Shown piece by piece: positions 14,056-18,013 of a DNA stretch of 64,000 nucleotides. The position numbers were made by a program, and so were the translations under genes. Within the stretch, counting starts at the first letter, position 1. The number at the start of each line of letters is the position of its first letter. Source of the DNA: Escherichia coli (GTDB taxonomy: Bacteria > Pseudomonadota > Gammaproteobacteria > Enterobacterales > Enterobacteriaceae); the NCBI RefSeq assembly GCF_001677475.2, contig NZ_CP015229.1; one strand, 5' to 3'. A model generated the notes under the pieces. That model had not been told where the DNA came from, did no database searches, and saw nothing but the letters and a program-made list of their open reading frames with translations.

Positions 14056-14071
14056 ATTGGTTGTTGTGCCA

Positions 14072-14103
14072 GATACAACGCTTATACGTCTTATCTGGCC
14101 TAC
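14072..14103. terminator. Hairpin between convergent yfaE and inaA (probable bidirectional terminator)
   Basis: Inverted repeat gccagata...tatctggc in the 53-bp convergent gap. Confidence 0.4.
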
Positions 14104-14108
14104 AACGA

Positions 14109-14759
14109 TTACATGGCGTAGTAATACGCTTTCACCTGCTCCCAGTCCGCTTTGGGGATTGGCTCCAGATATTTTTCCAGCTGGCGGAAGTCATGATTAA
14201 TCGCTTTATTGCGACGCAAGCGGCGACGACTTTTCTCCAGGTCAAGAAAACCAGATTCTGCTTTACCTTCTGTTTTCACATAGATATGGCGAACATAACA
14301 ACAGCCATGCTGACGATTAACGCTATGCATTTTCTTAAACGCCAGTGCCACTGCTTTCAACATGGCTTGCCGTACTTCGTCAGAATAAGGCGATACTGCA
14401 TGCTGGGCATACCAGTCAGCAATGCTGATGAACCCCGCCATATCTTCAGTCACCAGCAACGCGCGCCATTCACCCTCAATTTTCACCGCTTCACCAAAAA
14501 CGATCTTCGGCACGATGACACCGGCCCGTTCTAGTTCTTTAATTACCGCAACCTCACGGACAATCGTTGGTCGGCCGAACGGATAACGTACAGAATGAAA
14601 CAGATGATGTGTCATGCGCTTTACATACAGCTTTTTGCCGTTGCGCTCGACGCATTGCACACCGCTCATACCATTACGGCGATAGTTAGGCTCTTCAACC
14701 CAGTCGCCCTCTGTTGCCCACCAGTGATTAAATTCGTCGTACTTTGCTGAAACTGCCAT
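14109..14759 (-). CDS. inaA: Acid-inducible, Mar/Sox/Rob-regulated lipopolysaccharide-kinase-like protein InaA
   Basis: 216-aa ORF MAVSAKYDEFNHWWATEGDWVEEPNYRRNGMSGVQ... ending ...VKAYYYAM. Confidence 0.9.
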   Translation of the reverse strand: MAVSAKYDEFNHWWATEGDWVEEPNYRRNGMSGVQCVERNGKKLYVKRMTHHLFHSVRYPFGRPTIVREVAVIKELERAGVIVPKIVFGEAVKIEGEWRALLVTEDMAGFISIADWYAQHAVSPYSDEVRQAMLKAVALAFKKMHSVNRQHGCCYVRHIYVKTEGKAESGFLDLEKSRRRLRRNKAINHDFRQLEKYLEPIPKADWEQVKAYYYAM

Positions 14760-14973
14760 ACCCTATTGCCTGTCGTTTTTATTAACGACAATGACTATAG
14801 GTGGTTACCTGAGGAAAATCTTAATGAAACGTGTCGTATTAATGAATTTCTTTTGCCGCTACTAGTGTGACACCGCTTTTGCCCTTCATTTGCAGCGCAT
14901 AGATTCCACCAGCCACTACCACTAATAGTGCGCCCAGCAGATAAAATGTGAATTTAATCAGGCGGATACAGCG

Positions 14974-15180
14974 ATGAATTTTATGCGACAGGGATTAGGC
15001 ATCGCCTTATTACCAGAGTTAACGCTGAAAACCATTGCAGGTGAATTGTGTTCCGTTCCTCACGAACCAATCTTCTATCGACAGATTTCGTTGTTGGCTA
15101 AAGAAAAGCCGGTAGAAGGCAGTCCACTGTTTTTACTACAAACGTGTACGGAACAACTCGTGGTGAGTGGAAAAATTTGA
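14974..15180 (+). pseudogene. yfaH: LysR-family regulator fragment (substrate-binding domain C-terminus only)
   Basis: 68-aa ORF ...GLGIALLPELTLK... typical of a LysR-type C-terminal domain; no HTH-encoding N-terminus upstream. Confidence 0.55.
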
Positions 15181-15248
15181 TGTGAGACATGAGATTGATG
15201 ACAAATGTAAGATTGCCTGATTCGCCACACTTAGTTGGCCTGTAGTCT

Positions 15249-15338
15249 TTACCATGCGTAATAATTCGTTTTCACCTGATTTTGGTCCACTTTGTGAATT
15301 AGCGATATATATTTATCCAATTTAGGGAAGTGACAATG
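15249..15338 (-). pseudogene. Decayed 3' remnant of an inaA paralog
   Basis: Minus-strand translation HCHFPKLDKYISLIHKVDQNQVKTNYYAW* aligns with the InaA C-terminus HDFRQLEKYLEPIPKADWEQVKAYYYAM*; DNA also aligns with 14111-14190; an in-frame stop lies just upstream. Confidence 0.5.
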
Positions 15339-15645
15339 ACTCCAGGTAGAAACCGGTATGAAGCGCCCGACTCACTGTCAAAACCGATTGTTGAGAGTAA
15401 TGACACTCCGGCGAACAGTACACAGTTTACTCTGGAGCCATTCTCAATCTGCAAGTGGGATGCCTAATAACTTGTCAGGGAAGTTATCAATATCTGTTTG
15501 TTACTTATTACCGTGTTTATTAACAATAATGATACTTTCTAACATGCGTAAAGGTCTTCGTAATAAAATGAGCTAAATTTGATAGTGAATATATTCTGCA
15601 AAGATTAAATTGTATCTAGTTAACTCACAATACAAGGAATCATTT

Positions 15646-16716
15646 ATGCCAAATACATCTATTCAATTATCTCGCTGTAATATTTTACAAAATAATAAAT
15701 TGCAAACAGCAGAAATTTACAAAGAATCACAACAAACCGCGAAACTTGAGATTTTTTGCAATGAGTTTCTAAAAATATCTCAAAGTAGATTCGGGTTATC
15801 AACCTCAGCAGACAACATAGCTAATTTATTGGCTTTTTTCACGAAAGCCTCAGATGAAATTGATAGTATCAAAACCCAAAAAATTGACGTTCACAGTTAT
15901 GGTTTCGTACCAATAAGACATTTTGTCGAGCATGTCATAACGTATAAAAATGAATTTGCAGAAGATTATGAACCCTATACCCTTACCTTTACCCGAGGTG
16001 AAAACAACGAAGGTGTTTTGAGTATCGAAAGCAAAGAAGGGTTTCTTTCAGAAAGAACAATAAATTTAAATGAATATGAAACTGCAATTAACATCATCAA
16101 TGAGCATGTTGCAAAAGAAAATATCAATAACAAGATCCAAACATTGACAGACAAAGACACACCAAAAATAACCAACTCTGACAAAATTTATAAATTTATC
16201 CACGAGTTAAATATAAGAACTCAACTTTACAGCAAGCAAAAAGAATATACAGACCTGCTACTACATTCTGAGAAAAATACAGAATGGTACAAATACACAT
16301 CCTCCGAGGAACGCTATGATGTATTTAAGAATTCTTCTAAAAAAATTGAAAATACCTACAAGCAAATTGTGCAAGCGCAGAAAAAATTGAAGCAAATGAA
16401 ATACATCAATAAATTAAGTGGTGAGCTTATCGATATCGCCGACAAAAAGTTAGCACCATTAATAAATGATAGTTTCAGCTATACACGAGATTTCTTTGCT
16501 TACTCAAAAAATGAAAAAAATATCTTCACATTTGATAATTCTAAGTTTTTAGATCCAAAGGAAAAAGAAGGTTTAATGATACAACACAGCAATGGGCAAC
16601 TGGTTATTACTGGTAAATATTGCCCTGAAGGTATGCAAACAGCATTCACCCAAGAACAATATGATAAATTAATAAGATACATTAATATTTTCTTTACTTT
16701 CCAGAAATGCGAATAA
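15646..16716 (+). CDS. Hypothetical protein, AT-rich orphan, Lys/Asn/Glu/Ile/Tyr-rich, no signal peptide or TM segment
   Basis: Long intact ORF in a visibly AT-rich segment; ATG at 15646 preceded by AAGGAA (ORF-track start 15610 is TTG); no family recognised. Confidence 0.6.
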   Translation: MPNTSIQLSRCNILQNNKLQTAEIYKESQQTAKLEIFCNEFLKISQSRFGLSTSADNIANLLAFFTKASDEIDSIKTQKIDVHSYGFVPIRHFVEHVITYKNEFAEDYEPYTLTFTRGENNEGVLSIESKEGFLSERTINLNEYETAINIINEHVAKENINNKIQTLTDKDTPKITNSDKIYKFIHELNIRTQLYSKQKEYTDLLLHSEKNTEWYKYTSSEERYDVFKNSSKKIENTYKQIVQAQKKLKQMKYINKLSGELIDIADKKLAPLINDSFSYTRDFFAYSKNEKNIFTFDNSKFLDPKEKEGLMIQHSNGQLVITGKYCPEGMQTAFTQEQYDKLIRYINIFFTFQKCE

Positions 16717-16903
16717 TACTGTACATTATAAACTGCATTACAATTTATTATTGAGCCCTATTCATACTGTTTAAAGAATAACAATACCCAGTGTTAGCTT
16801 TCCTAACAAATGAGTTTTACGCAAATATGTTGGCATCTTTTTTAACAGGATGCTCAGGTGAATGAATAGAATAACCGGTAGTAGCATTATTTCGCTTTAG
16901 CTG

Positions 16904-16927
16904 AGGATGGCGCATGAACGCCATCCT
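16904..16927. terminator. Hairpin downstream of glpQ (end of glpTQ operon)
   Basis: Inverted repeat aggatggcg/cgccatcct just 3' of the glpQ stop; weak T-run. Confidence 0.4.
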
Positions 16928-16936
16928 GCAGTAGCA

Positions 16937-18013
16937 TTACTCTTTATTAAGGAATTTTACTGCCTTATCAGGGAAATCAGTAAACAGCCCATTTACACCC
17001 GCTTTGTCATACAGAACATCATATAACTGATTCACATCAGTAGTGTATTCAGGCAGTTTATCTGACCGCACGGTATAAGGATGCACTACCAGTTTATTCT
17101 GCTGAGCATCTTGCACCATGCCAGTGAGTTTGATATTACCCGGCTGCGATGTCTCCTCAATCAACATATGGTAATCCGGGCCAATACCATCTGCATATTC
17201 CGCCACCTGTTTCATGGCACCCGGCTTAAACATCCAGTCGTAGTTGTAATTAACCCAGCTTCCGTCCGGCTGTTTCTGCTGCGTTTCATTCCAGTCGGTA
17301 TAGGCAATCAGCTGTACCAGATTGAGATCCATGCCCATTTTAGGTTCCAGCTCATTCTTAATACGCTTCAGCTCATCAGCATCAAAACATTGTAAATAAA
17401 CTTTGTCGTCCTTACCGGTGTAACCATATTTCTTCAGCACTTCCAGCGTTTTTGCCGCAATATCCTTCCCTTCCTGATGATGGAACCACGGTGCTTTAAT
17501 TTCTGGATAGATACCGATATTTTTCCCGGTAGAGTGATTTAACCCCTGAACAAATTCAATCTCTTCTTCAAAGGTGTGCACCCGGAAGTCGGACTTACCC
17601 ATTGGGAAACGCCCCGGATAAGTCTGCACTTTTTTACCGTTTTCAATATCGAAACCTTCGGTAAATTTCAGCGACTTAATTTCATCCAGCGTGAAATCTA
17701 TCGCGTAGTAACGACCGTCTTTGCGCGCCCGATCCGGGAAACGATCGGCAACATCAGTAACACGATCGAGGTAATGGTCATGCAGAACAACCAGATGGTC
17801 GTCTTTGGTCATCACCAAATCCTGTTCCAGATAATCCGCTCCCTGCGCATACGCCATCGCTTTTGCTGGCAGCGTATGCTCCGGCAAATATCCACTGGCA
17901 CCGCGATGGGCGATGACTATTTTTTCGTTGCTGTCCGCCGCCATTGCACTGCTTCCCATGACTATAGTGCTCATCATGATCGCCATGCTAAGGTTTTTCA
18001 GCGTCAATTTCAT
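16937..18013 (-). CDS. glpQ: Periplasmic glycerophosphodiester phosphodiesterase
   Basis: Start MKLTLKNLSMAIMMSTIVMGSSAMA (signal peptide), HRG catalytic motif; start trimmed from ORF-track 18070 to 18013. Confidence 0.95.
   Translation of the reverse strand: MKLTLKNLSMAIMMSTIVMGSSAMAADSNEKIVIAHRGASGYLPEHTLPAKAMAYAQGADYLEQDLVMTKDDHLVVLHDHYLDRVTDVADRFPDRARKDGRYYAIDFTLDEIKSLKFTEGFDIENGKKVQTYPGRFPMGKSDFRVHTFEEEIEFVQGLNHSTGKNIGIYPEIKAPWFHHQEGKDIAAKTLEVLKKYGYTGKDDKVYLQCFDADELKRIKNELEPKMGMDLNLVQLIAYTDWNETQQKQPDGSWVNYNYDWMFKPGAMKQVAEYADGIGPDYHMLIEETSQPGNIKLTGMVQDAQQNKLVVHPYTVRSDKLPEYTTDVNQLYDVLYDKAGVNGLFTDFPDKAVKFLNKE

Follow-up and report, generated by a model that had tools for sequence, protein, structure and literature searches.

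InaA is a lipopolysaccharide kinase of the Kdo/WaaP kinase family, represented by the curated NCBIfam model NF007383. In the Escherichia loci sampled, the stop codon of inaA is followed by a REP element, a member of a repeat class that is associated with the end points of rearrangements. The interval between inaA and glpQ can also hold a gene for an MFS transporter and a gene for a LysR-family regulator, which are complete in some strains and reduced to 3′ remnants in others; the LysR remnant of K-12 is the pseudogene yfaH. This study concerns a further decayed element of the same interval, which lies beside an orphan gene and is very probably a non-functional remnant of the 3′ end of inaA.

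The window, the whole 64,000-nt stretch of DNA that was analyzed, belongs to a chromosome of the E. coli/Shigella type, and among complete E. coli genomes the best match to its glpQ–glpT–glpA stretch reaches 98.7% identity. Its genes run in the order nrdA, nrdB, and yfaE (plus strand), inaA (minus), an MFS stub (minus), a LysR stub (plus), the relic, the orphan gene (plus), and glpQ (minus). The features on which the following description depends are these:

14060–14106, minus strand: intact REP hairpin immediately 3′ of inaA, folding at -23.9 kcal/mol (z = -6.0).
14109–14759, minus strand: intact inaA, encoding the lipopolysaccharide kinase InaA of 216 aa (NF007383, E = 9e-154 over positions 1–216/216; RefSeq annotation of matching loci); the relic derives from a gene of this type.
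14840–14944, minus strand: 3′ remnant of the MFS transporter gene (annotation transferred from L001 and L003; tblastn with the XH990 MFS protein).
14939–15180, plus strand: 3′ remnant of the LysR-family regulator gene (the yfaH pseudogene of K-12), with a deletion junction identical to that of K-12.
15193–16903, no strand: presence/absence segment of 1,711 bp, with the relic at its left end, about 120 nt at ~42% GC, then AT-rich DNA and the orphan gene (alignments of the window with K-12, XH990, and L005).
15213–15248, minus strand: probable decayed copy of the inaA-flanking REP hairpin, with a 7-nt gap relative to the intact REP (Escherichia-only extended nhmmer profile, model positions 770–814).
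15249–15336, minus strand: relic of the inaA end, covering the last ~29 codons and the stop codon, the latter at 15249–15251 (alignments, NCBIfam); not a gene.
15646–16716, plus strand: orphan ORF of 356 aa and ~30% GC, without a family match, inside the same indel as the relic.
16904–16925, minus strand: glpQ terminator hairpin, the right boundary of the indel (alignments).
From 16937, minus strand: glpQ (gene order).

The minus-strand translation of 15249–15338 is HCHFPKLDKYISLIHKVDQNQVKTNYYAW*, exactly as an earlier, sequence-only reading of this DNA had given it, and the core of the relic includes sequence such as AAAATCAGGTGAAAACGAATTATTACGC. Local DNA alignment of the relic with the inaA 3′ end (14109–14196 plus the DNA downstream) gives a score of 37, compared with a mean of 10.5, a standard deviation of 1.3, and a maximum of 16 in 500 shuffled controls, so the resemblance claimed in that reading is well above what shuffling yields. 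Searched with an nhmmer profile built from 20 inaA genes, the relic is the second-best match in the window after inaA itself, at E = 2.8e-4 over model positions 569–650/651. The sister alleles of two other strains reach E = 4e-8 and 1e-6 over model positions 568–650/651 in a 16.8-kb search. Weak nhmmer matches at 43.6–45.4 kb lie within the men operon and are dismissed as chance. At the protein level, the relic peptide matches one of the 18,950 NCBIfam models, that of InaA, at its C-terminal positions 190–215/216, with E = 0.007 when the peptide comes from the window and 4e-4 when a consensus-like allele is used.

Upstream, the homology stops abruptly near 15336, and six aligned relic alleles share identical boundaries. 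Eleven further sense codons (VGRFIPVSTWS), which lack InaA homology, precede the HCHF motif, and the in-frame stop said to lie immediately upstream of the fragment in fact stands 11 codons upstream of HCHF. Over 87 nt, the relic is 68% identical to inaA in the window allele and 70% in a consensus of three alleles. Identity over the same 87 nt is highest with inaA genes from Escherichia (64–73%), lower with those of Citrobacter and Pseudocitrobacter (54–68%), and lowest with those of Hafnia (46–51%). Among 150 representatives of the InaA family, the relic peptide matches solely the E. coli-type cluster, and a distant paralog family was rejected as the source of the relic. The identity ranking, the family-cluster match, and the restriction of a REP 3′ of inaA to the Escherichia loci sampled together indicate that the source was an Escherichia-type inaA locus.

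The homology probably extends beyond the stop codon as well: a profile restricted to Escherichia and lengthened by flanking DNA aligns with 15213–15336 at 27.9 bits, with one 7-nt gap. Tested alone, the part beyond the stop shows 10 matches out of 12 in register and is not significant (z = 1.3). The corresponding DNA folds at -5.7 kcal/mol (z = +0.4), and thus lacks the stable hairpin by which a REP is recognized. REP elements stand directly after inaA in E. coli and in loci L004–L006 and L028; they are absent after inaA in Citrobacter, Pseudocitrobacter, Hafnia, and the other genera sampled. In Citrobacter, the end of yfaE lies within ~10 nt of the inaA stop, and in Pseudocitrobacter a different, GC-rich hairpin follows it. 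On these alignments, the minus strand of 15213–15336 is homologous to the final ~87 nt of inaA with the stop codon and, probably, to the REP hairpin behind it.

The relic has no present function and is drifting neutrally. Its substitutions relative to inaA are spread evenly over the three codon positions (10/8/8); for the same codons, the comparison of Citrobacter inaA with E. coli inaA gives 3/1/12. A 2-nt deletion shifts the frame in the XH990/O157:H7-type alleles, which are common. We found no start codon for the relic and no ORF of at least 25 aa in its frame, nor did it show any promoter or terminator consensus or any match in Rfam. The description of the stretch as a decayed, non-coding 3′ fragment of an inaA-derived gene is thus borne out, as is its antiquity, since the fragment is ~30% diverged with substitutions falling evenly on all codon positions. 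It displays what is expected of a pseudogene, namely significant collinear homology anchored at the stop codon, neutral evolution, and dispensability, and it has neither the start codon and ORF nor the pattern of purifying selection of a functional gene. As a gene, it is not a member of the InaA family: the peptide scores 15.8–19.9 bits against NF007383, whose curated cut-off is 235 bits, and the intact inaA scores 509 bits.

Dispensability is evident from the distribution of the relic. Of 5,426 complete E. coli genomes, 1,049 carry the region and 4,377 (81%) lack it; 29 of 30 sampled RefSeq records leave it without annotation. In strain 042, it was removed by a separate deletion, together with the 3′ end of the LysR gene. 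Where present, the relic is more polymorphic than its flanks, with 14 differences per 120 nt between the window and XH990 compared with 1–3 per 60 nt outside. The haplotype of strain 2013C-4282 is almost the same as that of the window over 1.7 kb, except for seven differences that fall within ~45 nt of the relic (15273–15332); strain cq9 carries the version found in the window. The alleles seem to form two classes with some mosaic forms, a pattern suggestive of recombination over short tracts and not of conversion from inaA. As an explanation of this polymorphism hot spot, gene conversion by inaA is unsupported: by our reading of the aligned alleles, the inaA-like states are scattered among them instead of being arranged in tracts.

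Comparison of haplotypes shows how the relic came to lie so near to inaA. The XH990-type order is inaA, complete MFS gene, complete LysR gene, relic, orphan, and glpQ, with the relic ~2.4 kb from inaA. An undeleted MFS–LysR pair separates inaA from the relic in XH990 and in L002. The MFS gene is intact (396 aa) in XH990, Escherichia whittamii, and Escherichia sp. E1V33, and so is the LysR gene. In the window, a deletion has fused the 3′ stubs of the two genes, and K-12 has the same junction. The 490-bp spacing between relic and inaA in the window is therefore the outcome of a later deletion of most of MFS and LysR. The sequence-only reading had taken the fragment as a sign of an ancient tandem duplication of inaA; an inaA-derived copy is indeed present, but the word tandem is not supported, with two complete genes standing between the copies in XH990 and L002.

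The DNA that is gained or lost with the relic is sharply delimited. K-12 (L003) lacks 15193–16903 and has the LysR stop, ~12 nt, and then the glpQ terminator hairpin. E. whittamii (L006) and Escherichia sp. E1V33 (L005), which keep MFS and LysR intact, have the same empty junction as K-12. The segment thus spans exactly the distance from the end of the LysR gene to the glpQ terminator hairpin. The relic begins ~20 nt inside its left edge and makes up its left-terminal ~125 nt, and from ~15460 onward the GC content is ~30%. The segment has no mobility genes; its ends show neither a target-site duplication nor a significant terminal repeat, and a search for relatives of the segment on plasmids and phages found none. 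A direct repeat, TAATGCTACTRCMGG (D11), occurs at 16875–16889 and 16925–16939 and brackets the glpQ terminator hairpin. One copy lies at the stop codon of glpQ, its partner within the segment close to the right edge. The partner could be read as a decayed copy of the end of glpQ with its terminator, but the match is not significant, since 16–39 of 500 shuffles score as high.

Other haplotypes of the interval are shorter. In phylogroup B2 (ATCC 25922, L032), glpQ is followed by 202 nt and then inaA. The GTDB representative E69 (L007) also has glpQ adjoining inaA, and since the final ~20 nt of the MFS gene remain in its spacer, the arrangement in E69 is a deletion derivative. The haplotype of ATCC 25922 and E69 has a glpQ–inaA spacer of ~200–240 nt and lacks MFS, LysR, relic, and orphan. 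About 1,049 E. coli genomes have no match to the inaA–glpQ interval of the window and may carry this B2-type haplotype. In strain 042, the MFS gene contains an internal stop and the LysR gene is truncated. In Citrobacter, glpQ adjoins inaA. A Pseudocitrobacter genome carries, beside inaA, an MFS gene 87% identical to that of E. coli, indicating that the MFS–LysR pair is probably ancestral in the neighborhood. All four combinations of MFS–LysR intact or deleted with segment present or absent exist, which shows that recombination has shuffled the locus and blurred its history. At least five haplotypes occur in the inaA–glpQ interval, which is decaying and prone to deletion.

The inaA gene next to this interval shows a steep gradient of divergence among Escherichia lineages from its 5′ to its 3′ end (window versus L028, L005, and L006). 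In L028, identity rises from 67% at the 5′ end of inaA to 96% at the 3′ end, and the flanking yfaE, nrdB, and glpT proteins are 99–100% identical. This gradient suggests a recombination boundary inside inaA, adjoining the variable interval.

The orphan ORF shares the indel with the relic and has homologues only in E. coli-named sequences. It has no match in NCBIfam, PHROG, PADLOC, or Pfam, and no relatives were found on plasmids or phages, the single “plasmid” match being a 4.9-Mb chromosome. Between the window and XH990, its dN/dS is 0.72 (inaA 0.08, glpQ 0.04) and its dS is 0.13 (inaA and glpQ 0.06–0.10). The similarity of its dS to that of its neighbors indicates that the segment is old within E. 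coli. Protein divergence among alleles of the orphan reaches 16%, and several strains carry a version that RefSeq records as frameshifted; the gene is either nearly unconstrained or diversifying. It includes a hypervariable patch at 16113–16232, where the window and 2013C-4282 differ from XH990 at 31 positions in 120 nt, with 1–4 differences per 60 nt elsewhere. A metagenome contig from ENA (L030) encodes a predicted protein of 408 aa (P0023) that joins a nucleotidyltransferase of the HIGH_NTase1 type to 125 residues 90% identical to the N-terminus of the orphan. The neighboring genes on L030 are unlike those around the E. coli locus, and the contig is most likely a chimeric assembly; P0023 was accordingly rejected as evidence of a donor context for the orphan.

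A fuller second inaA was sought at several levels. Beside the relic, neither nucleotides 1–569 of inaA nor its upstream region has a homologue, so the notion of a once full-length second copy finds no support there. Compared directly, inaA nt 1–569 and the stretch 15339–15650 show no similarity (z = -1.2). A tblastn search of InaA on three relic alleles gave noise beyond the relic, and the rest of the segment (15337–16903), compared on both strands with the REP–inaA–MFS–LysR unit, shows no similarity and no MFS or LysR remnants. Two candidate signals were discarded: a decayed inaA promoter near the relic, which is AT-rich noise (15515–15599, z = 3.5–3.7, but nhmmer E = 2.7), and the direct repeats D2 and D4, whose seed matches are at chance level.

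In other genomes, a distant-mode search with the 5′ 560 nt of inaA found 5,444 places in 5,425 E. coli genomes, a surplus of 19 places. Among the 12 rows listed from that search, one record has two places, apparently because its inaA is split. For the 5,426 E. coli genomes, the matches listed include no full-length second inaA, and none of 26 inaA loci from other genomes, including Escherichia, Citrobacter, Pseudocitrobacter, and Hafnia, has a second inaA within 8 kb. A tandem duplication would be marked by adjacent copies and by a full-length second copy surviving somewhere, and neither was seen in the haplotypes and matches compared. The genome with a full-length paralog at the syntenic site that the sequence-only reading anticipated is thus missing from the E. 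coli matches listed and from the 26 other loci, and the case for duplication of the whole gene in tandem is weakened. A collection of 5.8 billion protein sequences, queried with 40 aa and requiring three shared 5-residue words, held no candidate for a living protein with the C-terminus of the relic. Nor did we find a donor locus in which a complete inaA adjoins the orphan. A literature search for inaA together with yfaH returned nothing on the relic and one unrelated paper.

With moderate confidence, we favor the account in which the relic arrived with the 1,711-bp segment or arose in the same illegitimate recombination event. The segment would have been cut from another Escherichia-like inaA/REP locus in which orphan DNA lay beside inaA or had replaced most of it; alternatively, within the same account, the inaA tail and REP may have been copied during the insertion event. 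Either way, a 1.7-kb unit would have entered once between LysR and glpQ. A single insertion is the simplest reading because both edges match an empty site common to K-12 and two other Escherichia species and because the unit holds no other remnant of a second copy. We infer the direction of the event, insertion as opposed to precise deletion, from the shared empty site alone. Later deletions then produced three derived states, which the haplotype comparison displays directly. In the window, removal of most of MFS and LysR put the relic within 490 bp of inaA; the K-12-type state has the same MFS/LysR deletion without the segment; and strain 042 represents the third. It had been suggested that the event that brought in the orphan may have destroyed a resident second copy. 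The physical linkage of relic and orphan in one indel stands, but the identical empty site favors their joint arrival over destruction of a resident. Several considerations weigh against joint arrival: recombination has shuffled the locus, the REP part of the homology is not significant by itself, the segment is old and could be an ancient resident that was lost repeatedly, and the search for a donor locus yielded none, with the ~30% divergence being compatible with a divergent donor as well as with long decay in place.

A more specific version of joint arrival, which we put forward tentatively and consider rather doubtful as a whole, treats the relic as a “shipping label”. The donor of the segment would be a deep, unsampled Escherichia-like lineage with an inaA/REP locus where the orphan DNA had taken the place of most of inaA; the segment would have been excised there and inserted between LysR and glpQ of the E. 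coli ancestor by REP-associated illegitimate recombination.

The strongest rival places the origin within the resident locus, and we regard it as unlikely, albeit with real points in its favor. An Escherichia ancestor would have duplicated inaA, or the whole REP–inaA–MFS–LysR unit, in tandem; orphan-bearing DNA would then have replaced all but the last ~125 nt of the second copy, and the segment would have been lost later in some lineages. The two copies are direct repeats on the same strand, and the left edge at 15193 falls where a tandem junction, joining the DNA downstream of LysR to the REP flank, would lie. The ~30% divergence and its even spread over codon positions resemble long decay in place, and the locus is prone to deletion, the K-12, 042, and B2 haplotypes all being deletion derivatives. 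However, 15337–16903 retains no trace of a second MFS or LysR gene or of the 5′ part of inaA, and the replacement would have had to end exactly at an old boundary, the glpQ hairpin. Nor did a full-length or longer copy turn up in the 5,426 E. coli genomes (among the matches listed), the 26 other loci, or the protein collection, and K-12 shares an identical empty site with two other Escherichia species. In-place duplication also needs more steps, namely a duplication, an exact replacement, and losses in several lineages.

It is improbable, in our assessment, that a second inaA never existed and that ~125 nt of the resident inaA 3′ end and REP were merely copied, as filler or by template switching. 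The sharp end of the homology near 15336, with nothing beyond it, fits such a short partial duplication, and so does the inclusion of the REP, given the general tie between this class and rearrangement end points. On present data, this origin is indistinguishable from the others, and the ~30% divergence demands an old event, yet the segment is missing from the sister Escherichia sampled.

Least credible by far is that the resemblance to inaA arose by chance, which the alignment score against shuffles, nhmmer, and the NCBIfam match exclude, or that the stretch has a function of its own, whether as a small protein, a small RNA, or a terminator of the LysR gene: its frame is open for 40 codons in the window and it lies directly downstream of the LysR gene, but common alleles are frameshifted, no start codon yields at least 25 aa, no stable hairpin, terminator, promoter, or Rfam match is present, polymorphism exceeds that of the flanks, and most E. 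coli genomes do without it.

For the E. coli pan-genome map, the relic is one more pseudogene fragment without annotation, an ordinary result of small practical value, and the tests run on it gave no indication of a function or of a new mechanism. Its interest lies in its use as a marker. It indicates that the AT-rich orphan travelled with, or integrated beside, a piece of an inaA/REP locus, and it thereby constrains where the orphan came from. If the “shipping label” version is true, the relic would make it possible, as is rarely the case, to trace how a taxonomically restricted orphan gene came into E. coli.

Set against the known systems, the relic is closest to inaA (NF007383; Kdo/WaaP kinase family), since it matches the last 26–29 codons, the stop codon, and the downstream REP of Escherichia-type inaA. 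It differs from that gene in holding 13% of its length, without a start codon or kinase core, in its neutral pattern of substitution, and in being frameshifted in many strains. With REP elements, it shares the alignment of its distal 36 nt to the REP that flanks inaA, at the same 7-nt offset from the stop codon; unlike an intact element, its palindrome no longer folds, and it is best described as a dead REP, probable in its ancestry and neither functional nor mobile. The 3′ remnants of yfaH (LysR) and of the MFS gene are comparable in kind: each, like the relic, is a 3′-terminal stub in the deletion-prone inaA–glpQ interval and varies among strains. Those remnants are annotated pseudogenes with intact parents at the same position in other strains, whereas the relic is unannotated, has no intact copy at its position in any genome examined, and has a parent-type gene that is still intact 0.5–2.4 kb away.
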